DNA from: an uncultured Bacilli bacterium
Lineage (GTDB): Bacteria > Bacillota_I > Bacilli_A > RF39 > UBA660
Assembly: GCA_904502155.1 (NCBI GenBank)
Contig: CAJGDV010000001.1
Location: 1-59,632 of the forward strand
Length of the DNA: 59,632 bases
Direction of reading: 5' to 3'
Shown here one piece after another: positions 43,698-59,632 of the stretch. Position 1 is the stretch's first letter; every line of letters begins with the position of its first letter. The notes beneath the pieces were generated by a model. It had not been told where the DNA came from, ran no database searches, and saw only the letters and a list, made by a program, of their open reading frames with translations. The position numbers were made by a program, and so were the translations under genes.

Positions 43698-46600
43698 ATG
43701 AATAAAGAAGAAATGTTACAATCCTTAAAAGATTTAAAATTCAATATTAACGGCGGATTAGTTGATAACGAAACGAAAGAAAAATTAGAAAATTTAGAAA
43801 TCGATTTAAATTTATTAGATGATGAAATTTTTGAACTTTCTAATAAAATTCAAGATGATACTAATTATCCAACATTCTTTGCACTATATGATGAAGCAGA
43901 AGTAAGTAATGCAAAAAGAGAATTAAATATTGCTAAGGCTGGATTAGAATCAACTAAATTAACTATAGCGCAAGTTGAAGAGTATATTGCATATATCAAA
44001 CGTGAAATTGAAGAAAACAATAAAAAAATGGCAGAATTAAATAGAGAAAATTTAGAACAAGGAGCACGCTTAAGAGAATTAGGTATAACTCCAAATCCTG
44101 AAGAAGAAAATTTAATTCGTGAAACTTTAAATGTAAATAGAAATGAAATTTCAAAATTAAATATTAAAAATGATAGAGCAAAACAAATTTTAGTTGAAAA
44201 TGAAAATCAATTAACAGGATTATTAAATAATAAATCTGATTTTGAAAATAAAATGAATAATGCTCAAATCAACTTAAACAATGCTGAAAGTTTACAAGCA
44301 AGTCGTCCACTTGTTAATGAAGCAAAAAGAAATATAGATAAAGAAGAATTAGATGATTTAAAATATATTAAATCTACTATGGAAAATGAAAAATCAGCTT
44401 TATCTATAAATTTAGCAGATGAAGTTGAAAAAATTATTAACGATTTACAAGCTGATGTAATAACAGTTAATGATGTAAACAACAGATTAGAAGATTTAAA
44501 AAGAAATATGCCAGCAGGATATTTTAATGCTGATGTTGAAGATAGAAATAACGAATTAGTTCAAAATAGAAAAGTTCAAGTTGAACTAGAAGATAAAATT
44601 AATAATTTAACAGCAAAAGTTAATAATGTTGATAATTATAGATATTCTGATGCTGAATTAGCTCGTGAAGAAGAAAAAGTCAAAATTCTTGCTGTTAAAG
44701 TTCAAAATTCAAATTTAAAAATTGTTGAATTTGAAAAAGCAAAACAACAATTAGAAAGTGATTTAATTGAACAAAATAAAAAAGTTGAATCACGTGAAGT
44801 AGAAAATAGAATTATTGGTTTAAAAGCACAATTAAGAAGAGCAAAAACTAATGAACAAAGAGAACAAATTAACAAAGAAATAGAAGCATCACAAAAAGAA
44901 GCATGGAATGATTTAAACGAATTAACAGATAAAAAAGCTGAATTAGAATTAGTTAATTCATCATTAGTTGCTGAAGAATCAAATCTTGAAAGATATGTTA
45001 AGTTACATGAAAATGCTGTTAATAGAAAAGAAGATATTGACAGACGTTTAAAAAATAACGAAGTTCAAAATTCATATCAAAAAAGATTAGATGAAATGGA
45101 ATTAGCTAAATCTAAAGCTTCATTAGAAGCATTAAAAAATAGAGCTCAATTTATTTCATTACCAGTTTTAGAACAAGTAAATAATTTAATCAATAATAAT
45201 GTTAAAGTTGAAGAAAACAAAGAACCAGTATTTAAAGGTAAAAATGGAGAAGAAATTAAAGTTGGAGCTCCACTTCCATTTGATAATGATTTAGGTGTTA
45301 AAGATTCATCATTCGATGAAAAAACAAATCAAATTTTTATGGATGAACCAAAATCAAATTCATTAGAAGAAAATATTTTAAATACTTTAAATAATGATCC
45401 TAAATTAGGTGGATTAAAATTCTCTTTCCCAGATCAAAATGAAGAAGAAAAAGAAAATGAAGAAATTAATCCAATATTTAATCCTGAAATTAATTTAGAT
45501 GAACAAGAATTAAATAATGAGGAACAACAATTAAATAATGAAGAACAAGAATTAAATGTTGAAAATAATGAAGAAGTTGTTGAAGAAGAAAAAGAAGAAG
45601 AAAAAGAAGAAACAAAAGTGGTTCCAGTTGTTGGAAAAATGAAAGCTAAATTTAAAGAAGCTTCAGATAAATTAAAAAATAAAGCTAAAGATTTAAATTT
45701 CAGAGCAAAACTTAAAAAATGGGCTAAAGTTATTGCTGTAGTTGCTGCATCTGCAGTATTATTAGTAGCAAGTGGTAAATTACCTCAAAAAACTTTAGAA
45801 GATTTACAAGATCCACAAGTTATTGAACAAATTGATAATGAAGAATTAGATCCAAACGAAATAATCGAAGAGGATGTAAAAGAAGAAGAAAACAAAGAAG
45901 AAGTTGTTGAAGAAGAAAAAGAAGATGTTGTTGAAGAAAATAATAATAATAATGTTGTTGAAGATAAAAAAGAAAATGAAAATCAAAATCAAGTAGGTGG
46001 AAATCCAAATCCATCAAATAATAATAACAACAACAGTAATAATAATAATAGCAACAATAACAACAACAATAATAACAACAATAACAACGGTTCAAACCCT
46101 GTTGATGATCATGATAATTCTGATGAAATAACTGTTCCAGAAGAAAATAATAATAATCAAGATGATATTACAATAGATGAAGATACACCAGTAGAAGAAA
46201 TTGTTGATGATGCAGTTATTGAAGATGATAATAATGATGCAGTTATTGAAGACGATAATAATGATGCAGTTATTGAAGATGATGAAAACAATGACGCAGT
46301 TATTGATGATGAAAATAATGATGCAGTTATTGATGATGAAAATGAAGAAGTTTTCGATAATGAAGATCAATTTGGTAACGAAGATGAATTCGAAAATGGT
46401 GAAAATAATGACGGTGTTATTGAAGACGATCAAGAAAATGTTTTTGATAACGAAGACCAATTTGGTAATGAAGATGAATTCGAAAATGGAGAAAACAATG
46501 ATGGTGTTGTTGAAGACGATCAAGAAAATGTTTTCGACAATGAAGATCAATTTGATAATAATGAAAATGAAAATAATAATGATCAAAATACTGAACAAGA

Positions 46601-47135
46601 AGATGTTTATGACAATGAAGATCAATTTGACAACAATCAAAATGACAATAGTACAAATGATGAACCAGTTGTTGAAGAAGATGTTTATGACAATGAAGAT
46701 CAATTTGATAACAGCCAAAATGATAGTAGTACAAATGATGAACCAGTTGTTGAAGAAGAAGTTTATGACAACTTAGAAGATACTAATAACAATGTAGAAG
46801 ATAATACTCAAGAAGAAGTATACGACAATGTAGAAGATAATAATGTTCAAGATAACAATCAAACTACTGATCAAATCGAAGTTTTACCAGGAGAAACTTA
46901 TTTAAATGATCAACAAGAAGAAGTTTATACAAATGGTGGAAATGTTGATGATGCAATTGAAAAAGAACCAAATATCGAATCAATTGAACAAGGCGAAGAT
47001 AAAGACATATTAAATGTTTATACTAATGAAGAACAAATTAGTTACAACTCAGAAATTGAACAATTAAAACAACTTAGAGAATATTACGCTAATAACACAA
47101 TTGAAGAAGAAAATTCTATGACAAGATCATTATAA
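43698..47135 (+). CDS. hypothetical 1145-aa bitopic protein: ~650-aa cytoplasmic coiled coil, one TM, ~450-aa extracellular poly-Asn and hyper-acidic repeat tail (cassette B)
   Basis: RBS GGAGAG. The N-terminal 14-mer and the KMKAK-plus-TM segment resemble 12949-15009. The tail has repeated V[FY]DNEDQF motifs. Confidence 0.85.
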   Translation: MNKEEMLQSLKDLKFNINGGLVDNETKEKLENLEIDLNLLDDEIFELSNKIQDDTNYPTFFALYDEAEVSNAKRELNIAKAGLESTKLTIAQVEEYIAYIKREIEENNKKMAELNRENLEQGARLRELGITPNPEEENLIRETLNVNRNEISKLNIKNDRAKQILVENENQLTGLLNNKSDFENKMNNAQINLNNAESLQASRPLVNEAKRNIDKEELDDLKYIKSTMENEKSALSINLADEVEKIINDLQADVITVNDVNNRLEDLKRNMPAGYFNADVEDRNNELVQNRKVQVELEDKINNLTAKVNNVDNYRYSDAELAREEEKVKILAVKVQNSNLKIVEFEKAKQQLESDLIEQNKKVESREVENRIIGLKAQLRRAKTNEQREQINKEIEASQKEAWNDLNELTDKKAELELVNSSLVAEESNLERYVKLHENAVNRKEDIDRRLKNNEVQNSYQKRLDEMELAKSKASLEALKNRAQFISLPVLEQVNNLINNNVKVEENKEPVFKGKNGEEIKVGAPLPFDNDLGVKDSSFDEKTNQIFMDEPKSNSLEENILNTLNNDPKLGGLKFSFPDQNEEEKENEEINPIFNPEINLDEQELNNEEQQLNNEEQELNVENNEEVVEEEKEEEKEETKVVPVVGKMKAKFKEASDKLKNKAKDLNFRAKLKKWAKVIAVVAASAVLLVASGKLPQKTLEDLQDPQVIEQIDNEELDPNEIIEEDVKEEENKEEVVEEEKEDVVEENNNNNVVEDKKENENQNQVGGNPNPSNNNNNNSNNNNSNNNNNNNNNNNNGSNPVDDHDNSDEITVPEENNNNQDDITIDEDTPVEEIVDDAVIEDDNNDAVIEDDNNDAVIEDDENNDAVIDDENNDAVIDDENEEVFDNEDQFGNEDEFENGENNDGVIEDDQENVFDNEDQFGNEDEFENGENNDGVVEDDQENVFDNEDQFDNNENENNNDQNTEQEDVYDNEDQFDNNQNDNSTNDEPVVEEDVYDNEDQFDNSQNDSSTNDEPVVEEEVYDNLEDTNNNVEDNTQEEVYDNVEDNNVQDNNQTTDQIEVLPGETYLNDQQEEVYTNGGNVDDAIEKEPNIESIEQGEDKDILNVYTNEEQISYNSEIEQLKQLREYYANNTIEEENSMTRSL
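46017..46088 (+). repeat. AAT/AAC codon run encoding N6-S-N4-S-N12
   Basis: Counted codon by codon. A simple trinucleotide-like tract inside the CDS. Confidence 0.9.
46209..46343 (+). repeat. five tandem 24-30-nt units encoding DAVI(E/D)D(E)NN
   Basis: The unit gatgcagttattgaagatgataataat recurs with minor variation. Confidence 0.9.
46344..46523 (+). repeat. two tandem 90-nt units encoding E(E/N)VFDNEDQFGNEDEFENGENNDGV(I/V)EDDQ
   Basis: Copies at 46344-46433 and 46434-46523 are nearly identical at protein level, with synonymous differences. A third, degenerate copy follows. Confidence 0.9.
46602..46757 (+). repeat. two tandem 78-nt units encoding DVYDNEDQFDN(N/S)QND(N/S)STNDEPVVEE
   Basis: Copies at 46602-46679 and 46680-46757. 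Confidence 0.9.
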
Positions 47136-47483: not shown

Positions 47484-48422
47484 ATGTCAAACAATAACAA
47501 AATATTTAAAAACTTAGATGAACAAATTCAAATTCTTCTTGATAAAGGATTAATAATTAATGATGTTGATCATGCTAAGGAAATTTTATTAAAGGAAAAC
47601 TATTTTTTTATAAGTGGATATAGACACTTATTTATGAAATCAAAAAAACAAACTTCATTTATTGAAGGAACAACATTTGATGAATTGTATGCAATGCTTA
47701 TTTTTGATAGAAAAATGAGAAACATTTTTTTTAAATGGATTTTAGTAATAGAAAATAATATTAAATCAATTTTAAGTTATCAATTGTCAAAAAAATATGG
47801 TTTTAAAGAAAAAGATTATTTAAATCCTAAAAACTTCACTGTTGATAACATGAAAACAAGACAAGTTCATGATATTTTGAATAAAGTAAAAAGACAAATT
47901 AGAGTTAATGGTAATCAACATGCTGCAACATATCATTATATAGCAAATTATGGATATGTTCCTATGTGGATACTTGTTAAGGTTCTTTCTTTTGGATTAA
48001 TTTCAGAATTTTATGGAATTTTAAAAACTGAAGATCAATTAAAAATAGCTGAATTATATAATTTAGATATTGAAACATTATCATGCTATTTAACAATATT
48101 AGCAAATTATCGTAATATTTGTGCTCATGAAGAAGTTTTATATGAGCATAGAACACAACGTTCTATACCAGATACAAAATATCATCGTAATTTAAATATT
48201 GACTTAATAGATGATGAATATGCATATGGAAAAAATGATATATATGCTGTAATTATAATAATGAAACAACTATTATTAGATACTGAATTTAGAGATCTTA
48301 TTAATGAAGTTTCTTATGAAGTTGATATATTAAATGGAAAAGTAAGTTCTGTTCCATTAAATAATATCTTAAATAGATGTGGTTTCCCTGACAATTGGAA
48401 AGATATTTCAGACTTAGACTAA
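47484..48422 (+). CDS. Abi_2 family (AbiD/AbiF-like) abortive-infection protein
   Basis: FDRKMRNIFFKWILVIENNIKS, VPMWILVKVLSFGLISEFY and LANYRNICAHEE match the conserved blocks of the Abi_2 family as I recall them. Confidence 0.85.
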   Translation: MSNNNKIFKNLDEQIQILLDKGLIINDVDHAKEILLKENYFFISGYRHLFMKSKKQTSFIEGTTFDELYAMLIFDRKMRNIFFKWILVIENNIKSILSYQLSKKYGFKEKDYLNPKNFTVDNMKTRQVHDILNKVKRQIRVNGNQHAATYHYIANYGYVPMWILVKVLSFGLISEFYGILKTEDQLKIAELYNLDIETLSCYLTILANYRNICAHEEVLYEHRTQRSIPDTKYHRNLNIDLIDDEYAYGKNDIYAVIIIMKQLLLDTEFRDLINEVSYEVDILNGKVSSVPLNNILNRCGFPDNWKDISDLD

Positions 48423-48432
48423 GGAGGACATA

Positions 48433-49530
48433 ATGAAAAAAAATACAAAAGTCGTAGTAAATGCATCATATGTTATAAGCATATTAATTGCATTATTTAC
48501 AGGAATAATTGGAACAATTTGTGTTTATAAATTTATTCCAAACAAGACAATAACAACAAAACAAGAAAGTAAAATAACATTAACAGAACAAGATACAATT
48601 AGTTCTGCAATAGGAAAAGTAAACGATGCTGTTGTATATATAGAATCATATCAAAGAAATGTAGCTGCTGGTAGTGGTACAGGATTCTTTTATAAAACAG
48701 ATGAACAGTATGGTTATATTATTACAAATAATCATGTTGTAGAAGATGCTCAAAAAGTTGAGGTTACTGTTACAAATGGTTCACAATATGAAGCTAAAAT
48801 ATTAGGAACAGATGAATATTCAGATATTGCAGTATTACAAGTTCCAAAAGAAGCAGCAATAGCAGTTACAACAATTGGAGAAAGTGCTGAATCAAAAGTA
48901 GGAGATACAATCTTTACAGTAGGATCACCTTTAGGTATTGAATATATGAATTCAGTTACAAAAGGTATTATCTCAGGAAAAGATAGAACAATTGAGGTTA
49001 CATTATCAAATGGTGATTACTTAATGGAAGTAATTCAATTAGATGCTGCAATAAATCCAGGAAATAGTGGAGGACCATTATGTAACATTAATGGTGAAGT
49101 AATTGGTGTTAATTCATTAAAACTTGTAAAAAATGAAGTTGAAGGAATGGGATTTGCTATTCCAATTGAATATGTAATGACACTAGTTCCACAATTAGAA
49201 ACTGGTGAAAAAGTTAAAAAACCTCTAATTGGAGTTGAAATGTTAAGTATTGGAGATACATGGCAATTATATAGAAATGGTATCATGATTAGTGAAGATA
49301 TTGAATATGGTGTTGTAATTGTAAATGTATCAAAAGGTAAACCAGCTGATAAAGCAGGACTTAAAAAAGGCGATGTAATTGTAGAATTTGCCGGTAAAGA
49401 AGTAAAAAGCATGGCTTATTTTAGATATTTATTATATAAACAAGCTGTTGGTGATACAGTAAAAATTAAATATTTTAGAGATGGTAAAGTAAAAGAAGCA
49501 TCTATAGTTTTAACAGAAAGTTCAAATTAA
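48433..49530 (+). CDS. htrA: HtrA/DegP-type membrane-anchored serine protease with PDZ domain
   Basis: N-terminal TM. Catalytic His (TNNHVV), Asp (DIAVLQ) and Ser (GNSGGPL). PDZ element GLKKGDVIVEFAG. Confidence 0.92.
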   Translation: MKKNTKVVVNASYVISILIALFTGIIGTICVYKFIPNKTITTKQESKITLTEQDTISSAIGKVNDAVVYIESYQRNVAAGSGTGFFYKTDEQYGYIITNNHVVEDAQKVEVTVTNGSQYEAKILGTDEYSDIAVLQVPKEAAIAVTTIGESAESKVGDTIFTVGSPLGIEYMNSVTKGIISGKDRTIEVTLSNGDYLMEVIQLDAAINPGNSGGPLCNINGEVIGVNSLKLVKNEVEGMGFAIPIEYVMTLVPQLETGEKVKKPLIGVEMLSIGDTWQLYRNGIMISEDIEYGVVIVNVSKGKPADKAGLKKGDVIVEFAGKEVKSMAYFRYLLYKQAVGDTVKIKYFRDGKVKEASIVLTESSN

Positions 49531-50889: not shown

Positions 50890-52329
50890 ATGCAAGATGA
50901 TATTAGAAGAACTGTATTATTTTTAGTAAATGGTTTTGGTGTTGATAAAAGAGATATTTATGATATCTGTAATGATGCAATAATTCCTAATATAAATAAA
51001 TTAGCTAGTGAAAATATTTATAGTGCGATTGGGAATCTTTCTACTAATTATAAAAATGGATTTCGAATTTTTAGTACAAGTGATAAACAATTGCCAGGAT
51101 ATAGAACAGTTGCTCAAGATATAATTGACAACTATGATCACCATGAAAAATTTAATCAAATAGCTGAAAAGTTAGTTCAAGAAAATAAAAAATTGCATAT
51201 TTTTTGCTATCTTGACAATGATACAACTATTGATCATGCTAAAAATATAGTTAGATGTTTTAAAAATAAAAATGTAAGTAATATTTTTATACATGTTATA
51301 TTTAGAACATTTAAAGAACAAAATTATAAAATTATTGAAAAAAATATTAATAATATTAAATTAATTTCAACACAATATCCTGATGTTAAATTTGGAATGT
51401 TTTTTGGAAATGAACTTTTAGAAGATATTCAACAAACAAAAGATTTATATCAAATGTTAATTACTGAAGTAGGAGAAAGATGGCCTGATTTTGTACGTAA
51501 AATCGAAATATTAAGAGATAAAAATACAAAACCAGGTACTATTAAACCATTCTTTATTACAGGTGGATTTAAAGTAGAAGAAGGAGATTCAATATTATTC
51601 TTAAACTATGAATATGTAGATTATAGTAATTTTATTGAAATGTTATTAAATCCTAAATTACATTTTTCTTTATCAAAACTACCATTAAACGTAAAAGTTT
51701 ATTCATTATTTCCAATAAAGGCAAAAGTAGCTATTGAATCAGTATATGGCAATCAAGTATCAGAAAATTATTTAGTAAAATATTTAGATAAAATCAATGC
51801 TAAAGCATTAGTAATAACTAAAAAAGAAAAATTAACGTTTATAAATAATTTCCTAAATGGTATGCAAAATACTAAATCAGATAGATTGGATTTTATGATT
51901 ATTGACGATAATTTGCCAATAGCAAATATTGTTACTAATCCAAATTATCAACTTTATATTTTTGACTATGATATTGGTGACGTAAATAATATGGAGGAAT
52001 TAAAAAATCAACTTCATAAAGCTGATGCAATGCTTGGAAATGTTGCTCATCAATGTAAATTATATGATTATAGCTTATTTGTATCATCACTATATGGTAT
52101 TGAAAAAGAATGGAAGCGTGAAAATAATTTAGTATATATTATAAATTATGCTGTTCAAGTTCCTTTAATAGTTGTTGATAGATTAACAATTAAAGGGAAA
52201 CATTTTATTAACAACGGTAGTAATCAATACTTATTACCAACAGTTATTAAAAATATGAAAAAGGATTTAAATGTCCATTCAATGATTTCTGAAAAATCAC
52301 AAGGATTATTTTCATCATTTAAACTTTAA
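50890..52329 (+). CDS. degenerate homologue of cofactor-independent phosphoglycerate mutase (iPGM-like pseudoenzyme candidate)
   Basis: Collinear blocks against iPGM: LVNGFG vs ILDGFG, LHIFCYLDNDTTIDH vs LHLFGLLSDGGVHSH, NIFIHVIFRTF vs RVYIHGFLDGRD, DSILFLNYEYVD vs DAIIFYNFRPDR, VSSLYGI vs ITADHGN. Metal and catalytic residues are mostly replaced. Confidence 0.65.
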   Translation: MQDDIRRTVLFLVNGFGVDKRDIYDICNDAIIPNINKLASENIYSAIGNLSTNYKNGFRIFSTSDKQLPGYRTVAQDIIDNYDHHEKFNQIAEKLVQENKKLHIFCYLDNDTTIDHAKNIVRCFKNKNVSNIFIHVIFRTFKEQNYKIIEKNINNIKLISTQYPDVKFGMFFGNELLEDIQQTKDLYQMLITEVGERWPDFVRKIEILRDKNTKPGTIKPFFITGGFKVEEGDSILFLNYEYVDYSNFIEMLLNPKLHFSLSKLPLNVKVYSLFPIKAKVAIESVYGNQVSENYLVKYLDKINAKALVITKKEKLTFINNFLNGMQNTKSDRLDFMIIDDNLPIANIVTNPNYQLYIFDYDIGDVNNMEELKNQLHKADAMLGNVAHQCKLYDYSLFVSSLYGIEKEWKRENNLVYIINYAVQVPLIVVDRLTIKGKHFINNGSNQYLLPTVIKNMKKDLNVHSMISEKSQGLFSSFKL

Positions 52330-52410
52330 AAGAAGATGTCAAATTTTCTTTTTTTTTGTCAAATTTAAAAAAATTATATTGTAGTAGATTAAAATAAGTG
52401 ATAACATTGT

Positions 52411-52441
52411 TATAGTAGTATAGGGAAATTATACTACTATA
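52411..52441 (+). promoter_or_regulatory. perfect 12-bp inverted repeat (operator-like or 5' hairpin) upstream of the WXG-like gene array
   Basis: tatagtagtata-gggaaat-tatactactata. The left arm overlaps a TGtTATAGT extended -10-like box. Confidence 0.6.
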
Positions 52442-52452
52442 GAAAGTAGGTA

Positions 52453-52791
52453 GTGAGTATGGCTAATAATGTAATAGGTATAAATGAGGAAAATTTAAGT
52501 GCCCTAATTAATGAACTCAACAATTATATCGAAGACATCTCTAAGACTTTCAATGATATGGATGATATTATTGAAGGTACTAATGCTACATTTCAAGGTG
52601 AAGCTGGAGATGCTCTTAGAAATAAATATGACTACATTAAGTTAAACTTTCCAAGAATTTTAAATAACCTAGAAAGTTATACGAAAGATTTGGTTAAAAT
52701 TAGAAATAATTATGTTTCTTTTGAATCAAGTTTCACATTACCTGATTTTGAACTTGAGGGAGGAAATAAACAATGGGAAAAAGCGGATTAA
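52453..52791 (+). CDS. small helical T7SS-associated protein (WXG100/LXG-N-like with F-Q-G in place of W-x-G)
   Basis: 112 aa. FQGEAGDALRNKY at the centre. The start may be ATG 52459. Confidence 0.6.
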   Translation: MSMANNVIGINEENLSALINELNNYIEDISKTFNDMDDIIEGTNATFQGEAGDALRNKYDYIKLNFPRILNNLESYTKDLVKIRNNYVSFESSFTLPDFELEGGNKQWEKAD

Positions 52792-53090
52792 GCATAGATG
52801 CTATTACTCATGGTGTGTCATCTGAAGGTGTAGAAGCTTTATTAAGAGAAATACATTTAGAGATGATAATTAATGCAAAAACAAATCTTGAAAAAACACA
52901 AGATTTTGAAGCAGCAGTAAATGCTGGTTGGGAAGGACCAGACAAAGAAGTTTTTTTAAAAAACTGTGAAAAAATGAAAAATGAAATAAGTGAAGCGTTA
53001 CAAGGTTATTATGATCAAATAGAAGCTGAATTTAATGCAGTTATAAGTCATTGGGAAGAATTCCAAGCTTCAAACGTAAGTGCGCAATAA
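52773..53090 (+). CDS. WXG100-family protein
   Basis: 105 aa. W53-E-G (nt 52929-52937) lies centrally. GAGGGAGG RBS. 19-nt overlap with the preceding gene. Confidence 0.7.
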   Translation: MGKSGLSIDAITHGVSSEGVEALLREIHLEMIINAKTNLEKTQDFEAAVNAGWEGPDKEVFLKNCEKMKNEISEALQGYYDQIEAEFNAVISHWEEFQASNVSAQ

Positions 53091-53107
53091 AATAGGAGGA
53101 AGTTTAA

Positions 53108-53476
53108 ATGGCAATTAATAATATAGGTACTGTTGGGATTATCGAAGGCGAAATCGATAACATGAAAGCAGCGTTAAAAGTATATAAAGAAGGTATAGAT
53201 GAACCATTAGCTCAATTATCGAGTATGGTTGACTATGCACAAGCATTTAAAGGTTCTAATATTGCGGATAGCGTTAAAGGTTATTTAGAAAAAGCAATAG
53301 CTGAAATTAAAAAAATGACTGATTACTTATTAGAATTTGATACTGCTCTTGATACTGTTAGAGCTAATTATGAAGCTGAAGCATCAGCTGTTTCTCAAAA
53401 AGTTGGCGGAGACACAGACTCTGTTACTACTACTCAAATTAATACCAAAACTGGGGTAAACCCATTTGGTGGATAA
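53108..53476 (+). CDS. small helical T7SS-associated protein (WXG100-like with F-K-G)
   Basis: 122 aa. AFKGSNIADSVKGY lies centrally. AGGAGG RBS. Confidence 0.55.
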   Translation: MAINNIGTVGIIEGEIDNMKAALKVYKEGIDEPLAQLSSMVDYAQAFKGSNIADSVKGYLEKAIAEIKKMTDYLLEFDTALDTVRANYEAEASAVSQKVGGDTDSVTTTQINTKTGVNPFGG

Positions 53477-53490
53477 TAGGGTGATATAAA

Positions 53491-53847
53491 ATGATTTCAT
53501 CGAGTGAGTTAATACAAAGAAAAAATAATTATATTCAGTTACAAAATGATTTAGAGGGATTATCATCTAGTATGAAAAATAGTATGGATTCTTTAACGTT
53601 TGCAGTTAAGGGAATTAATAATTCATATTTGATAGATGGTGAACCAGCTGATTATAACAAAATTAGTGATGTTAATAGACGTAATAATGAATTATATAAT
53701 GAATTAGGAAAATGTAGAAATGCAATTAGTGCTAAAATTAGAGAATTAGAATCTCAAATAAAAAGTGCTTTATCATATGAAGCAGAGCAAAGACGTCTTC
53801 GTGAAGAAGAACTTGCTAGACAAAGAGAAGAGGCTAATAATGGCTAA
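53491..53847 (+). CDS. small helical protein, possibly YwqH/DUF5082-like T7SS helper
   Basis: 118 aa, predicted helical. The AISAKIRELESQIKS block and charged C-terminal tail suggest the family, but this is from memory only. Confidence 0.45.
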   Translation: MISSSELIQRKNNYIQLQNDLEGLSSSMKNSMDSLTFAVKGINNSYLIDGEPADYNKISDVNRRNNELYNELGKCRNAISAKIRELESQIKSALSYEAEQRRLREEELARQREEANNG

Positions 53848-54130
53848 TATAGAATTAGATACAATGAAAACTCAAAATATAGCGAGTAAGTTTAATGATA
53901 AAATAAACGTATATAATAATACAATGACTAATTTTTTTACAAAATTATGTTCAATTGGTGGAGCTGAAGGTGCTTGGACGGGTGATGATAGTATGAAGTT
54001 CGTCACTCGTGCACTTGAAGAAAAAAAAGTATACGAAGATTTCTCAGTTATATTAACAGAGTTTGCAAAAACTATTGATGAAAGTTGCGATGAAATAGCT
54101 ACTGCAGTAGCTAGATCAAGGATAAATTAA
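53840..54130 (+). CDS. WXG100-family protein (EsxA-like size)
   Basis: 96 aa from ATG 53840. W46-T-G (nt 53975-53983). The ORF-track start 53765 lies inside the previous gene. Confidence 0.7.
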   Translation: MANIELDTMKTQNIASKFNDKINVYNNTMTNFFTKLCSIGGAEGAWTGDDSMKFVTRALEEKKVYEDFSVILTEFAKTIDESCDEIATAVARSRIN

Positions 54131-54462
54131 TGGGAAATGTAAAAATGGCTAAATTATATTATAAGAGTGATTCTATTAAAGAATCTGTTCTTCCAAATAT
54201 TGTTGAAGCAAAAAACCATTTAAATGTATCTTTTTCAAAAGCAAATTCATTATCAGTTCCTAATGATTTTGGATATAGATCGTTCTTATTAAATTTACCT
54301 AATGAAATTAAAAAACTCGAAAACTCATGTGAAAACATACAAGTTTGGGCTAATAAAAGCATGCAAGCTGTAGATATGGCTTCTAGTGAGGTTGAAACAA
54401 AATTTAGTGGTATCGAGGTTGAGGAAATACCATTAAGAAGTGAATCAATTATATCGAAATAA
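54130..54462 (+). CDS. small helical protein, possibly YwqI/DUF5344-like T7SS helper
   Basis: 110 aa. The start shares one base with the previous stop. Weak pattern similarity only. Confidence 0.45.
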   Translation: MGNVKMAKLYYKSDSIKESVLPNIVEAKNHLNVSFSKANSLSVPNDFGYRSFLLNLPNEIKKLENSCENIQVWANKSMQAVDMASSEVETKFSGIEVEEIPLRSESIISK

Positions 54463-54492
54463 AAAAAGATGTGTTTCAATCACATCTTTTTT
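54463..54492. terminator. bidirectional intrinsic terminator between the convergent T7SS units
   Basis: aaaaagatgtg-tttcaat-cacatcttttt, with A-run and T-run flanks serving both strands. Confidence 0.8.
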
Positions 54493-54747
54493 TTACATTA
54501 ATATAAGATTACAACCTTGTTTTATTGTGCTTTCCTTAACAAGCTGATTAGGTTGATAAATTTCATTTGTTTCTCTATTATATAGACAAGCATTATTTGA
54601 AATAATATCTTCATTATTATTTAGTTCTCTTATAGACTTACATAACAATAGGATTACATTTCCTATTTTTTTGTTTAAAGGTATAAAAATTGTATACGTT
54701 TTTTCAATATCTGGAACAATAAGTTCAACAAGTATTTTACTATTCAT
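54493..54747 (-). CDS. esaB: YukD/EsaB-like ubiquitin-fold T7SS protein
   Basis: 84 aa. Pattern ..YTIFIP....IG.VI..L...I........I.......YN..T...Y.......ES.I..G..LIL is typical. 8-nt overlap with the essC stop. Confidence 0.75.
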   Translation of the reverse strand: MNSKILVELIVPDIEKTYTIFIPLNKKIGNVILLLCKSIRELNNNEDIISNNACLYNRETNEIYQPNQLVKESTIKQGCNLILM

Positions 54748-57700
54748 CTAAATTTCTCTCCTTATCAACAACATATTTAATTAGTGTATGTTTTCCTTTG
54801 TTAAGTACAAATGCCATGTAACGGAAATCAATTTTTCTTTCATCTAAAGATAAATTGTTGAATTTTAAAGACATTTGATTTGCTACATTACTTCCAAGCC
54901 ATATACCAGTAGTCATATCAACATTAGATCTAAACCACATTTCAGATTCAATATCTTTAAATTGTGTATAATTATCCATTATAATGAATTTGTTATTATT
55001 TTTTTCTGCAATTTTACTAAATACTTCATTGTAAATATTTTTTACATCTAAACTCAATAATTGTTTAAATTTAGATATTCCAAGGAAAATAAATACATTT
55101 TTTCCTGTCTTTGTTTCATCATTATTAAGTTCAATTGCAATTTTTTGAATTAAATCATCAAAGTCATTTTTGAAACAAGTAGCTTTAGAACAATTTGTAT
55201 CAAAAATATCTAATAAATCTATAACCCTAACTGTGACATTAGGAATATCTAATAAACTATCAATTAAACCATAAACGAATCCAATCTCATTTTCAATTGT
55301 TGAAGCAATTATAGGTGTAACAATATTTTTTTCAAAATCAAAATGGCATGTATTAACTTTTGATTTTCTTATACCAATTGAAACATTTTCTAAACTAATA
55401 GATTTATCTAAATCTTGTTTTTTAACAACTGATGGTAAAACAACAATCTTAGGTGCTTTAACATTAGGATATTTTTCATTAAATTTAGTTTCAAGATTAA
55501 TAATTGCTTTGTTCATTTCATCTTGTTTTGCAAACATTGCAGTTTGGAATTCATATGAGAAATCATCAATTTTTACAACTCCTCGACCAAACTTGTGTGC
55601 AGGAACAACTCCTCTATCAGTATTAAGTAAGTTTCTATAATCCATATCATTTGGAAGTTGTAAGGCTATACGATTTGGGAATATTTGAGTAATTCTTAAT
55701 CTTATACCTGAAGCAACTGATGATGTTATAAGGAAGTGAATACCGAATTTAGAACCATCTCTAAATAAAGCTGATAATTGGTCTTCTAATCTTGCATAAT
55801 TTTCAGCAAGAACTTCATATGAATTAATAATTACAGAAATCATTGGAATTTGTTGCCCAGATTCTTTAATATATGAATCATAAGAACCACCAAATTCACT
55901 AAATAAATCTTTTCTTCTTTCGATTTCCATTTGAAGTGTCATAATTAAATTATGTATTTTTTCACTTTCATCAATAAATACAACATCACCGACATGAGGA
56001 TATTTATTATATTTTTTTAGAGTTTCTGATCCAAAATCTAAAATATAAAAATTAATTTCACTTGGAGAATGATATAAAACAATTGAATTTATATAAGTTG
56101 ATATAAAGTTTTCTTTACCACTTCCAGGCATACCATATAAAACAATGTTTGCTTTTTTATTTAAATTAATTTTAAATAAACCTTGTGTTTGATTAGAAGG
56201 ATCATCATATTCTCCGATAATAGCATCTATTTCATATGGTTTTTGTGTTACGGCATATTTAATAATTAAATTATTAATTAATATTTCATCACTTAAGCTG
56301 TCTAGCCATAATTTTTTAGTTTTAATATTATTTTTATTTGCAAGTAGAGATAAATATTTAACAATATTTGTTAATTGTTCACCATGATCTTCTATATTTT
56401 CTCTTCTAATAACGTCATTAATAGATTTTATTATTTCGCCAGTGTTATTTATAAAATTAATTGAAGTATCAACTTTCTTGATAACTTTTTCTGTTGGTAC
56501 ATATTTAGCCCCAGCCCATGCTGATTGTCCTAATTCAAATAATTCATCATAACCAACTTGTAAATAAAATCTACCAGCTTCTTTAATACTAGCTGCTTCT
56601 GGACGTTTTAGCATTTCCATACTATCAGATCTTGTTGCAACTTTTAAACATATTTTAAATTTAGAGTTTGACCAAATTTGATCATTAACAACTCCACTTG
56701 GTTTTTGTGTTGCTAAAATTAAATGTACACCTAATGAACGACCAATTCTTGCTGTTTGAACAAGTTGACTCATAAATTCAGGTTGTTGACTTTTTAATTC
56801 GGCAAATTCGTCTGATACGATAAATAAATGTGCTATTGGTTCTGTAATAACACCTTCTCGATAAAGTTTTTGATATTTATAAATATCAATAGTACTTTCT
56901 CCAAGGTTATCACGAACATCATTAAATAATTTTTGTCTTCTTTTAAGTTCACTTTGAATTGATACTAATGAACGATTAATTTCATTTGTATCAAGGTTTG
57001 TAATAGTACCAATTAGATGTGGAACTCTAACACCAGTTTCCTTATTTTCAAAAGCACCTGCTAAACCTCCACCCTTATAATCTATTAATACAAATTGTAC
57101 TTCATCAGGACTATAATTTATACACATAGATAAAATATATGTAATTATAAATTCAGATTTACCACTACCTGTTGAACCAGCGATTAAACCATGAGGTCCA
57201 TGATGTTTTTCGTGTAAATCCAATTTAAATGTTTCACCTTGTTCGTTAACTCCAATTGGAGTAGATAAAGATACAATTGGATTACTAATTTTCCATCTAT
57301 GGGCAATATTTAATTGCTCGATTTTTCCTACATTAAACATTTCCAAGAAAGATACTAAAGATGGTAGTTGTTGAATACCTTTAATAGGTGCAACAGGAAT
57401 ATTAGCTAATTCACTAACCATTCTTTGCATATCTATAAGTGGATTATAATCTGGTATGAAATTTTTTTGTTTATTACTTGCAAGTTCTTTTTCAAATACA
57501 CAACTTGTTTTTTTAACAACATAGGCATATGTTGTACAGTCATTTGGAATATTTTTCATAAGATTTTCAAATAAGCATAAAGAAAATCCAAAATTTGTAG
57601 GATGATTTAAAAGATTTGTAATAAATTTATTAGATTTAATATTTATATAATTATCTGTAATAATTAAATAATATGGTAAATAATTTTTAAATGCTTCTTG

Positions 57701-59320
57701 ACCATTAAATTCTTGGTCTAACATTTTTGTATTTCCAGCTATTTGTTCAAATCTTTCATTGAATTGGTGTTCTAAATATTGTAATACTTTTTTTGCTTCT
57801 TCATTAGTTGATGCAAAAAATCTTACACTTTTATCATCACTAAATAAATGTGGTAATGTTTTTAAATATTCCCATTTATATTCGTTTTCTTTATCAGTTA
57901 GAAAAACTAATTTTAAATCATTAGGACTATGAAAAGTCATTAATTGTAATAATAATCCATTTAAAAAATCTTGTTCGAATGGGCAGTTACATACTACAGC
58001 CATTATTTTATTTTTAATAAAATCTATTGTAACTGGCACATTATTTAAACTTGTATATTTATCTTTTAAATTAAGAACACTTTCTAATAAATTATCATCT
58101 TCCATTGTAAAATGTTCTTCTGGAGCTTTTATAGATATTGATAATGGAGCATTACCAAGTCCTACTCGAACATTTAAAAAATCATTATCATTTATTTCAC
58201 GATTCCATACTTTATCTTTGTTATTTACAATTATTTCTGCACATTCTGCTAAAGTAATATTATTTTCATGTAATATTTGAGAATGTTGTTTCATAATTAT
58301 ATTAATTTGATTTTCCTTATTATTAAGATATTCTGTATATCTTTTTTGTCTTTTTTCTTCCATTTTATGCATCATTTTCTTTTGATATGCTTTTAATAAT
58401 CTAGGCATAACAATTGAACCTATTACCATAGTTACACATAATATTAAATTTGGAATAACTTGACCAAAAGTTTTATTTCCGCTTGATACATCATTGTAAG
58501 CGTTATAAGCTGAAATACCTGAAAAAGCTATCATTGTTAAACTAGAACCCATTGATAACAAGAATGGGATATCTTCTTTTAAATAAGAAGCTGGTGGAGC
58601 CTCAATAACAATTTCTTTTTCTTCTATAACTGTTCTAAGTCTTGGTTTATGAAAAAAATAATCTTCCTCATTAATAACAATTTCTTCATCTGGATTAGAA
58701 GGAGTATATTGTGTATTATCTTCTCTTGGTCCTTGTTCCATAAGTTGTAATTTAGCACTTGTCATAACTCTATTACCAGGATTATTTATTTTCATAAAAT
58801 TACCCATCCATATAATTTTTAATCCACCAATAAAAATTATATCTCCAGTTTTTAATTTCTTATTTATAACTCTTTGATGATTAACATAAACTCTAAAGTT
58901 ATCTTCAGCATTGCTATCCAAAATATACCAATGATTATCTTTGTAAACAATTGATGCTTCAAAAACAGATATTAAATTTGATGATAAACTAATATCTGAA
59001 TTCATATCATTACCTATAGAAATACTATTAATTCCATTAAAAGAAACATAACGGTGATTTTCTTCAATTTTTGGTGCGACATGAAGATAAATTAATTCCT
59101 TATTATTTTTTATTGCTAATTGATAACTACAATAAGGTCTTAATTCAACTTTGGGTTCAGAATTAACACTTACAGTATTATCATTTACTAAATACCATGA
59201 TCCATTTTCTGCAACAATATTTAAATATATTTTCTTATATTTAAATAGTACATTTTCATCAATGATGTCGGGCAAATCATAAGAAACTAGTCTATTACTA
59301 CTTTCTACATATAGTCTCAT
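54740..59320 (-). CDS. essC: T7SS FtsK/SpoIIIE-family ATPase EssC/YukB
   Basis: 1526 aa. Tandem N-terminal FHA-like domains, two TM helices, Walker A GSTGSGKS (module 1) and GMPGSGKE (module 2). I find no clear P-loop in module 3. Confidence 0.92.
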   Translation of the reverse strand: MRLYVESSNRLVSYDLPDIIDENVLFKYKKIYLNIVAENGSWYLVNDNTVSVNSEPKVELRPYCSYQLAIKNNKELIYLHVAPKIEENHRYVSFNGINSISIGNDMNSDISLSSNLISVFEASIVYKDNHWYILDSNAEDNFRVYVNHQRVINKKLKTGDIIFIGGLKIIWMGNFMKINNPGNRVMTSAKLQLMEQGPREDNTQYTPSNPDEEIVINEEDYFFHKPRLRTVIEEKEIVIEAPPASYLKEDIPFLLSMGSSLTMIAFSGISAYNAYNDVSSGNKTFGQVIPNLILCVTMVIGSIVMPRLLKAYQKKMMHKMEEKRQKRYTEYLNNKENQINIIMKQHSQILHENNITLAECAEIIVNNKDKVWNREINDNDFLNVRVGLGNAPLSISIKAPEEHFTMEDDNLLESVLNLKDKYTSLNNVPVTIDFIKNKIMAVVCNCPFEQDFLNGLLLQLMTFHSPNDLKLVFLTDKENEYKWEYLKTLPHLFSDDKSVRFFASTNEEAKKVLQYLEHQFNERFEQIAGNTKMLDQEFNGQEAFKNYLPYYLIITDNYINIKSNKFITNLLNHPTNFGFSLCLFENLMKNIPNDCTTYAYVVKKTSCVFEKELASNKQKNFIPDYNPLIDMQRMVSELANIPVAPIKGIQQLPSLVSFLEMFNVGKIEQLNIAHRWKISNPIVSLSTPIGVNEQGETFKLDLHEKHHGPHGLIAGSTGSGKSEFIITYILSMCINYSPDEVQFVLIDYKGGGLAGAFENKETGVRVPHLIGTITNLDTNEINRSLVSIQSELKRRQKLFNDVRDNLGESTIDIYKYQKLYREGVITEPIAHLFIVSDEFAELKSQQPEFMSQLVQTARIGRSLGVHLILATQKPSGVVNDQIWSNSKFKICLKVATRSDSMEMLKRPEAASIKEAGRFYLQVGYDELFELGQSAWAGAKYVPTEKVIKKVDTSINFINNTGEIIKSINDVIRRENIEDHGEQLTNIVKYLSLLANKNNIKTKKLWLDSLSDEILINNLIIKYAVTQKPYEIDAIIGEYDDPSNQTQGLFKINLNKKANIVLYGMPGSGKENFISTYINSIVLYHSPSEINFYILDFGSETLKKYNKYPHVGDVVFIDESEKIHNLIMTLQMEIERRKDLFSEFGGSYDSYIKESGQQIPMISVIINSYEVLAENYARLEDQLSALFRDGSKFGIHFLITSSVASGIRLRITQIFPNRIALQLPNDMDYRNLLNTDRGVVPAHKFGRGVVKIDDFSYEFQTAMFAKQDEMNKAIINLETKFNEKYPNVKAPKIVVLPSVVKKQDLDKSISLENVSIGIRKSKVNTCHFDFEKNIVTPIIASTIENEIGFVYGLIDSLLDIPNVTVRVIDLLDIFDTNCSKATCFKNDFDDLIQKIAIELNNDETKTGKNVFIFLGISKFKQLLSLDVKNIYNEVFSKIAEKNNNKFIIMDNYTQFKDIESEMWFRSNVDMTTGIWLGSNVANQMSLKFNNLSLDERKIDFRYMAFVLNKGKHTLIKYVVDKERNLDE

Positions 59321-59379
59321 AATTACCTCCTATTATACTATAACAATTATACCATATAAAAAAGATAATTACATTAGCA

Positions 59380-59631
59380 TTATCTTATTTTTTTAGATTT
59401 GAAACAGTGAGCATAAAAACCTAAACAATTAATATGTTCCTTAGGTTTTTTATATTCATATATTTCAAGATCATTAGGATTATAATTTTTATATTTTACA
59501 ATATCTGGAAATTCTAAAATTACTTTATCTAATAATTCATCTAAATTATCAAATTCATAAACACCTTTTAATTTATCCCAAGAATGTTCAAACCAATAAT
59601 ATTTATTATTTTCTTCATAAACTAAAAATGT
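59380..59631 (-). CDS. 3' end of an unidentified ORF upstream of essC (83 codons visible, start beyond window)
   Basis: Hand translation of the - strand: ..YYWFEHSWDKLKGVYEFDNLDELLDKVILEFPDIVKY...CFKSKKIR, stop at 59380-59382. An 83-codon open frame is unlikely by chance in AT-rich DNA. Confidence 0.5.
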   Translation of the reverse strand, partial: TFLVYEENNKYYWFEHSWDKLKGVYEFDNLDELLDKVILEFPDIVKYKNYNPNDLEIYEYKKPKEHINCLGFYAHCFKSKKIR

Positions 59632-59632
59632 A

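Follow-up and report, generated by a model that had tools for sequence, protein, structure and literature searches.

Can a type VII secretion system (T7SS) be organised around its EssC motor when EssB, EsaA and EssA are not encoded beside it? The question is raised by a locus at the end of a 59,632-nucleotide (nt) stretch of DNA from an uncultured Bacilli bacterium (contig CAJGDV010000001.1, hereafter the window), in which a 1526-amino-acid (aa) EssC-type ATPase and an 84-aa ubiquitin-like protein, both encoded on the - strand, face six small helical proteins (s1 to s6) encoded on the + strand. EssB, EsaA and EssA are reported as essential in Staphylococcus aureus and in Bacillus subtilis (PMC4949537; PMC12637312). 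The locus presented here looks like an undescribed minimal T7SS variant, composed of EssC, a ubiquitin-like helper and the six small helical proteins. In the literature we found neither a description of a T7SS for this lineage nor an EssB-less T7SS.

Residues 222-1515 of the 1526-aa protein match the NCBI equivalog model TIGR03928 (T7_EssCb_Firm) with 961.9 bits (cutoff 778.4), whereas the FtsK model NF007615 reaches 61.5 bits against a cutoff of 1566 and covers only the P-loop region at residues 695-916. The EssC-type identity that had been proposed from the letters alone (the sequence-only reading) is thus confirmed, and the protein does not score as a DNA translocase. Pfam places the FtsK_SpoIIIE domain (PF01580) in three stretches, corresponding to the three modules (D1 to D3) recognised before. 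D1 carries the Walker A motif GSTGSGKS, which is invariant across 83 homologues, and D2 has the P-loop variant GMPGSGKE, where Glu replaces the usual Ser/Thr; a P-loop was looked for in D3 and none was found, so that the earlier account of Walker A in the first two modules only is correct. Among solved structures, YukB of B. subtilis is the closest (9qks, E = 3.8e-119), and those of EccC come next. An exact look-up of the EssC sequence of the window returned nothing on record.

Two FHA-like domains had also been claimed for the N-terminal part. The second (FHA2, residues 100-165) stands, with 26.4 bits against PF00498 (cutoff 20.7), whereas the presence of FHA1 is only weakly indicated by the sequence. 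True FHA domains (Rv1747 and GarA) are recovered by a profile that was built from residues 1-230 across the family, with E-values down to 1e-6. At positions 49-217 the N-terminal profile also matches 1wv3 (E = 0.005), a structure labelled 'similar to DNA segregation ATPase', which we take to be the tandem-FHA fragment of S. aureus EssC. The phosphothreonine-binding GR, SxxH and NG residues are not conserved in the region, FHA2 keeps some invariant positions, and neither BLAST nor phmmer aligned the region with canonical EssC.

Scans of one-genome-per-species contigs and of metagenomes led to 160 related loci (161 with the window), all of them from metagenome-assembled genomes of uncultured gut 'Bacilli', 'Tenericutes' or 'Mycoplasmatota' or from gut metagenome contigs, with EssC proteins 40-53% identical to that of the window. 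Mapping of the locus across these relatives showed that the module is conserved in the 160 loci. Family hidden Markov models (HMMs) placed the ubiquitin-like gene directly 3' of essC, on the same strand, in 141 of the 148 loci that could be judged; at least two small-family genes were present in 106/161 loci and all six families in 50/161. In 53 loci no more than one of the six families is missing; 50 of these keep the s1-to-s6 order, and in the 53 the cassette is convergent and downstream of essC-yukD (23 loci), co-directional and downstream (23) or co-directional and upstream (7). The non-textbook order pointed out by the sequence-only reading, with yukD after essC and the substrates in a convergent unit, is therefore real, but as norms of the clade and not as a peculiarity of this window. 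A near relative, L163, whose s6 is 89% identical, has an organisation identical to that of the window.

Searches for the missing partners covered about 10 kb on either side of essC. With canonical EsaA, EssA and EssB as tblastn queries (E < 1e-3) against the 161 loci (2.86 Mb) there was no locus with a match (0/161), the EssA result being a weak test, as EssA is short and poorly conserved; canonical EssC found 161/161 loci by the same algorithm. Canonical T7SSb loci from Listeria, B. mycoides, L. fermentum and an Enterococcus plasmid (L161, L162, L166 and L167) were used as controls, and all four present the order esxA-esaA-essA-esaB-essB-essC with essB, esaA and essA immediately beside essC. 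Single-sequence probes had missed the ubiquitin-like gene, and therefore an EssB HMM was built from 117 PF10140 proteins. On the four control loci it gave E-values of 1e-201, 1e-176, 3e-76 and 1e-56; on 17,186 six-frame segments from the window and the 160 loci the best E-value was 0.49. Clustering of the open reading frames (ORFs) around essC in 81 loci revealed no recurrent membrane protein besides an HExxH lipoprotein, and ten large or transmembrane proteins located beside distant modules had no T7SS match in Pfam. An NCBIfam scan of 125 neighbour ORFs with transmembrane segments, of which the 25 most frequent families were ABC transporters and the like, was uninformative on the partners. 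Divergent partners, if co-located, should have surfaced as conserved clusters. Inside the window module there is no intergenic room for a further gene, and EssB, EsaA, EssA, toxin domains and an immunity family were all looked for in the window locus (Pfam, tblastn, EssB HMM) and not found, in agreement with what had been seen by eye.

Two options had been offered for this absence, namely membrane partners lying beyond nt 59,632 or a reduced apparatus. Since the metagenome scan gave no relative closer than 53%, the sequence beyond the window can be inferred only via syntenic relatives. The same upstream ORF as in the window is found in L005, L062, L002-L004, L015 and L017. Beyond that ORF, L005 encodes a divergent P-type ATPase, a pgm-like gene, an RDD protein, rpiB and spoIID, that is, housekeeping genes instead of essB, essA or esaA, and the gene-order map gives L062 the same layout. 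These syntenic relatives, together with the 160 loci in which EssB was not detectable, back the reduced apparatus. EssB, EsaA and EssA thus appear to be absent locally, because tblastn, the EssB HMM, the clustering and the syntenic relatives are all negative.

Two proteins were considered as disguised partners and rejected. The HExxH lipoprotein was discarded as a hidden EssB, as it has a lipoprotein signal and no pseudokinase domain and is not encoded in the window. It is present in 26/161 loci (family HMMs), where it measures about 580 aa (range roughly 500-600), shows a weak Peptidase_M78 match and is established either between the ubiquitin-like gene and the cassette or after the cassette (e.g., L041 14871-16421 and L009 14890-16677). 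A 1145-aa ORF of the window (43698-47135, +) was discarded as an EsaA analogue, having no Pfam match and no conservation beside essC; it consists of a long N-terminal coiled coil, a single transmembrane segment and a C-terminal half with acidic Asn/Asp/Glu-rich repeats ('DNEDQF...').

The 84-aa protein had been called a YukD/EsaB ubiquitin-like protein. It has itself no match in Pfam or NCBIfam, and a profile of its family found no match among the PDB sequences, but the fold bears the call out. An AlphaFold2 model built from 15 sequences (predicted local distance difference test, pLDDT, 92.2; predicted template modelling score, pTM, 0.80) is a beta-grasp with the order beta-beta-alpha-beta-beta. 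The top Foldseek match of this model is the ubiquitin-like domain of EccD5 from mycobacterial ESX-5 (template modelling score 0.70-0.77), and the remaining ones are all ubiquitin, SUMO or ISG15 folds. The C-terminus reads ...NLILM and has no Gly-Gly. Sub-threshold matches to YukD (PF08817) occur in 9/30 family members (best E = 0.0065), and the family HMM matches the annotated EsaB/YukD of Agathobacter rectalis (E = 3e-4). Fold and genomic context together support a YukD/EsaB-like protein, predicted from the model, whose family is very divergent in sequence.

The analysis bears out the six small genes, which are conserved, although the start given to s5 by the ORF finder (GTG at 53765) is probably too early. 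The likely start is the ATG at 53840 (96 aa), because the homologues have a median length of 97 aa, the family begins with 'MA.I..DT' and the independent gene call in L163 is 96 aa long; for s1, the ATG at 52459 corresponds to the call in L163. Family alignments were built from 26 complete cassettes. s1 scores 28.9 bits against WXG100 (PF06013, cutoff 27.3) and 26.6 bits against LXG (PF04740, cutoff 26.5), aligned to LXG positions 10-90; despite this threshold-level LXG-like signature, no toxin domain was found in its 112 aa. The W-x-G motif is kept in the family consensus of s2 ('gW.G') and of s5. HMMs of s5, s2 and s1 match canonical EsxA proteins of Listeria, B. mycoides, L. fermentum and the Enterococcus plasmid with E-values from 1e-8 to 4e-4; specifically, s5 matches canonical WXG100 proteins at 1e-8 to 2e-5, and s2 matches EsxA of L. 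fermentum and Listeria at 1e-6 and 5e-6. Judged by these profiles, s1, s2 and s5 are EsxA/WXG100 homologues. Profile-profile comparison with hhalign groups s3 with them (probability 97% for s1 and s3, 89% for s1 and s5, 84% for s1 and s2), and the s3 profile has marginal matches to EsxB/CFP-10 (E = 0.03) and to an LXG domain. s4 and s6 form another hhalign group (89%); their profiles match only generic coiled-coil-type PDB entries, with a weak YwqH-like match (PF16888) in 2/25 members of s4 and an LXG match in 1/25 members of s6 (E = 7e-4). The AlphaFold2 model of s6 (pLDDT 73.7) has two helices, 2-39 and 50-92, a family-invariant Pro in the loop and a disordered tail; Foldseek gave no significant match to it, the nominal top being EsxA:EsxB (E = 0.56). 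No transmembrane segments were found in s1-s6. On sequence grounds, s1, s2, s3 and s5 are thus classed as EsxA/WXG100-like, and s4 and s6 as a second helical family.

The motor and the small proteins diverge together. Median pairwise identity is about 23% for the small proteins versus 46% for EssC, and the divergence of the former tracks that of the latter (Mantel r = 0.79, a value reached by 0/2000 permutations). Along EssC, identity to the window falls from 76% in D1 to 44% in D2, 39% in DUF, 37% in FHA2, 28% in D3 and 24% in FHA1. In a neighbour-joining tree of 1157 columns, the EssC clade of the window is monophyletic in 200/200 bootstraps and forms a separate, long-branched lineage, the four EssCs of canonical T7SSb also group as a single clade in 200/200, and the window EssC is 27-32% identical to each reference EssC. 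Such a pattern agrees with a motor and substrate set passed on vertically, together with a recognition module that evolves fast; it fits neither swappable toxin cargo nor decay.

Taken together, we hold it to be moderately probable that the locus is a conserved module with a reduced apparatus, whose small proteins would be its main cargo or co-secreted core factors. EssC would oligomerise via its stalk and DUF domains to form a membrane channel, and the ubiquitin-like protein would act as a clamp that keeps the tandem of non-phosphopeptide FHA domains on DUF/D1. D1, the sole module with a canonical invariant P-loop, would hydrolyse ATP and power transport, while D2 (GKE) and D3 (no P-loop) would take part in regulation and substrate binding. 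The fast-evolving D3 would recognise the C-terminal tails of the small proteins, and s1-s6 would be exported as hetero-oligomeric helical bundles. The mechanism is drawn by analogy from the B. subtilis T7SSb structure determined by cryo-electron microscopy and from the biochemistry of EccC. In B. subtilis, YukD touches YukB at its FHA domains, at the DUF domain and at a D1 hairpin, which stabilises the FHA domains (PMC12637312). A bolder and less probable version is that EssC and the ubiquitin-like protein make up a self-sufficient translocon with no further membrane subunit, and that the six co-evolving helical proteins would be, in place of ordinary cargo, an obligate hetero-oligomer (e.g., three EsxAB-like pairs). 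This would form an extracellular or envelope-spanning portion of the machine, or a membrane-active complex, and would functionally replace EsaA, EssB and EssA in these gut Bacilli with small genomes.

Several points weigh against a reduced apparatus. The EsaA and EssA tblastn searches used two seed sequences each, and the canonical EsaB probe missed the yukD-like gene, so very divergent partners could likewise evade sequence probes. The s1-s6 family consensuses were inspected for YxxxD/E and FxxxD export motifs, and nothing convincing turned up. The references in the EssC tree are few, with none from T7SSd-j. The retained tandem FHA region and the invariant positions of FHA2 could hint at a surviving EssB-type partner, and a separate essB/esaA/essA operon may exist elsewhere, beyond the 10 kb around essC that were searched.

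The last two points lead to the alternative that survives best, namely an ordinary T7SSb that is merely split, with EssB, EsaA and EssA encoded in a separate chromosomal operon. Apart from the extent of the searches, it can draw on the FHA domains, which bind EssB in B. subtilis (PMC12637312), FHA2 being the binder in T7SSb, on an EssC score above the NCBI cutoff for the T7SSb type and on the T7SSb-associated DUF4176 in 48 relatives. We consider it unlikely, as the four canonical loci all keep the three genes immediately beside essC and 0/160 relatives, from many genomic contexts, have them within 10 kb, and as the EssC clade is separate and long-branched with an FHA region that neither BLAST nor phmmer aligns with canonical EssC.

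Less likely again, in our view, is that s1-s6 are Lap-like targeting adaptors plus an EsxA for a large toxin encoded elsewhere, the window then holding an antibacterial delivery kit. The threshold LXG-like signature of s1, the YwqH-like s4 members and the LXG-matching s6 member would suit such adaptors, as would the 300-1400-aa proteins beside the small genes in distant relatives, and other T7SS subtypes as a rule have small WXG-related Laps next to toxins (PMC11217815). Laps, however, are normally encoded beside their own toxin, whereas at least 50 loci have the cassette without an adjacent large substrate or immunity gene, and the fixed order and co-divergence with EssC are unlike the variable toxin modules of T7SSb. 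A decaying T7SSb remnant, which has lost its membrane genes and secretes nothing, would explain the local lack of three components that are reported as essential in S. aureus and B. subtilis, but it is very improbable given eight intact ORFs with coupled starts and stops, a near relative organised identically and a module retained by 160 loci, in which D1 is 76% identical and has an invariant Walker A. Finally, an FtsK/SpoIIIE DNA translocase or a conjugative coupling protein, which the FtsK_SpoIIIE P-loop modules and weak matches to FtsK and TraB models might recall, can practically be discounted and is rejected in view of the FtsK and EssC model scores, YukB as the closest solved relative, the FHA-TM-DUF-D1-D2-D3 architecture and the linkage to WXG100 and ubiquitin-like genes in 141/148 loci.

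The window is of low guanine plus cytosine content (about 26%), and the coding strand flips at about 54.4 kb. The eight ORFs of the module lie where the sequence-only reading had put them, including the 8-nt overlap of the 84-aa ORF with the stop of essC; all are intact and tightly packed. The cassette and essC-yukD constitute two convergent transcription units with one shared bidirectional terminator, and the coordinates are given in the following table.

Coordinates of the features of the T7SS module in the window
Feature	Position	Strand	Details
Intergenic region upstream of the small-gene cassette, putative promoter	52330..52452	+	promoter-like hexamers
s1, WXG100/LXG-like small helical protein	52453..52791	+	112 aa from GTG; 110 aa from ATG 52459
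s2, WXG100-like, W-x-G motif (GWEG)	52773..53090	+	105 aa
s3, WXG100-superfamily helical protein	53108..53476	+	122 aa; about 158 aa in most relatives
s4, small helical protein of the second family (with s6)	53491..53847	+	118 aa
s5, most EsxA-like, W-x-G motif (AWTG)	53840..54130	+	96 aa; ORF-finder GTG start 53765
s6, two-helix hairpin protein, conserved 'P-x-D-F' loop	54130..54462	+	110 aa
Bidirectional intrinsic-terminator-like hairpin between the convergent units	54463..54492	.	folding
Ubiquitin-like EsaB/YukD-type protein (TsxB)	54493..54747	-	84 aa
EssC-type T7SS ATPase: FHA1 (weakly indicated)-FHA2, transmembrane stalk, DUF/D0, D1, D2, D3	54740..59320	-	1526 aa
essC 5' region: promoter-like site and strong ribosome-binding site	59321..59380	-	
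'TGL' transglutaminase/cysteine-protease-like protein, C-terminal part, cut by the window end	59381..59632	-	family HMM

The 30-nt gap between the two units reads AAAAAAAGATGTG-TTTCAAT-CACATCTTTTTTTT, with the pattern A7-GATGTG-loop-CACATC-T8. It folds into a hairpin of -14.9 kcal/mol (z -4.89), and 0/200 shuffled sequences were as stable, which supports the bidirectional terminator proposed earlier; a scanner for the consensus terminator pattern did not list it. Being flanked by runs of A and T, the hairpin could terminate transcription in both directions. Upstream of the cassette, promoter-like hexamers are found at 52389-52416 (with an extended -10 TG) and at 52407-52435, which are consensus matches only and no more frequent than in shuffled sequence. 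For essC, an AGGAGG is located 6 nt 5' of the ATG, and a promoter-like TTTATA-17-TATAAT at 59360-59332 (consensus match). An Rfam scan of the whole window (1-59632) gave no family at the gathering score.

The partial ORF at the window end belongs to the TGL family (family HMM, E = 1e-25), whose members are roughly 190-208 aa at full length (e.g., L005 9333-9959), carry the motifs GICWET...CHS and show a weak match to DUF553 (PF04473, E = 0.0097). TGL precedes essC in 13/161 loci, window included, 30-60 nt upstream and co-directional, and may be an accessory factor of the module. In 48/161 loci a DUF4176 protein with C-terminal tandem 'KFDENGxVV' repeats is established at the cassette end (e.g., L010 10650-11558 and L041 18520-19338), in contrast to the short DUF4176 of canonical Listeria T7SSb. 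Two essC copies per locus were observed in L021, L028 and L068; in L021 and L028, two essC-yukD pairs flank a single cassette. Distant members of the clade encode 1300-1400-aa proteins without a Pfam family just 3' of the small genes (L058 15450-19610, L071 7618-11850 and L079 14737-18744), which are possible large substrates.

Apart from the module itself, its neighbours in the window are an iPGM-like protein, a thioredoxin-like protein, a nitroreductase, HtrA and Abi_2. The iPGM-like ORF (50890-52329, +) is a degenerate one of 479 aa (57.7 bits against TIGR01307, cutoff 330), and a gene of this kind accompanies the T7SS module in L005, L062, L068, L078 and L163. An Abi_2 abortive-infection-like gene directly followed by the HtrA protease gene occupies 47484-49530 (+), and the pair is syntenic beside the module in L005, L034, L062 and L063. 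Farther away, at about 16.6-30.2 kb, a long run of small co-directional ORFs resembles a ribosomal-protein operon in its ORF pattern.

Both the composition of the T7 channel and the accessory proteins that are truly required are debated, and the roles of EssB, EsaA and EssA are poorly understood. If the reduced apparatus is real, the locus would offer a natural, widely conserved minimal model for structural and reconstitution work and a direct test of whether EssC needs no partner to build the translocon. The T7SSa-j catalogue, which was built on RefSeq, where uncultured lineages are poorly represented, would also gain a subtype, and abundant uncultured Bacilli of the human and animal gut would gain a secretion system together with six proteins that are likely secreted.

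T7SSa-j were defined by EssC phylogeny and gene neighbourhood in a survey of RefSeq, and all of them share TsxA (WXG100) and TsxC and usually TsxB, the ubiquitin-like protein (Garrett, Higginson & Palmer 2024, PMC11217815). The broad core of TsxA, TsxB and TsxC (PMC11217815) is present here as WXG100 proteins, a ubiquitin fold without Gly-Gly and EssC. The subtypes add a kinase, a phosphatase, an FHA protein, vWA, EspG-like, beta-propeller, AAA+ or Ig-like proteins (PMC11217815), and the Ser/Thr kinase TsxD, the PPM phosphatase TsxF, the DUF6382-FHA protein TsxJ, the vWA protein TscE, the EspG-like TsxG, the beta-propeller TsgL, the AAA+ protein TsfV and the Ig-like TsxI were not among the window genes or the recurrent neighbours, which are only DUF4176, the HExxH lipoprotein and TGL. 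Going by the published descriptions, the locus does not match any of T7SSa-j (PMC11217815): no subtype is described there that consists solely of an EssC with FHA domains, a ubiquitin-like protein and six small helical proteins.

With the T7SSb of S. aureus, B. subtilis and Listeria it has in common the tandem-FHA EssC with two transmembrane helices, DUF and three P-loop modules, a separate EsaB/YukD ubiquitin-like protein, EsxA-type WXG100 proteins and, in relatives, DUF4176. The FHA domains of T7SSb EssC also lack the phosphothreonine-binding residues (PMC11217815). T7SSb differs in having EssB/YukC, EsaA/YueB and EssA/YueC, none of which was found in the window or, among the 160 relatives, up to 10 kb from essC, in placing the ubiquitin-like gene before essB and not after essC, and in having one esxA with a toxin-immunity region where this locus has six small helical genes and no such region. 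In LXG toxin systems the LXG domain is fused to a toxin and an immunity gene is adjacent, and the window locus has neither. The simplest subtype, T7SSg of Acetivibrio and Paenibacillus, has a similarly short list of TsxA paralogues, TsxB and TsxC (PMC11217815). Its TsgC, however, is without FHA domains, unlike the window EssC, it has two WXG100 proteins in place of a six-gene cassette, and its beta-propeller TsgL and adjacent Tad pilus genes are not among the recurrent or Pfam-scanned neighbours here.

The EsxA-EsxB complexes of T7SSa and the LXG-Lap complexes of T7SSb resemble the cassette in being encoded by adjacent genes for helical hairpins of about 100 aa, which are exported as hetero-oligomeric bundles and recognised by the last ATPase module; s1, s2, s3 and s5 are EsxA-like, and s4 and s6 weakly YwqH/LXG-like. 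EsxA-EsxB is a pair, whereas the cassette has six distinct members in fixed order, with no LXG toxin domain and no recognisable export motif. The A. rectalis DFI.5.28 locus (L164, NZ_CP143948.1, 4609-11854) shares with the window EsaB/YukD, an FHA-bearing essC and WXG100 genes; its annotation shows neither esaA nor essA nor essB within 9 kb, and the EssB HMM is negative. It differs in having yukD before essC, Imm59 immunity genes, only a WXG100 match in place of the six-gene cassette, and an essC that is apparently split into a 228-aa FHA protein and a 1169-aa ATPase. Its EssC is 30% identical to that of the window and does not group with the window clade (48/200 bootstraps). As this locus too is without EssB, EsaA and EssA, reduced T7SS layouts may be more widespread among gut anaerobes, Lachnospiraceae included.

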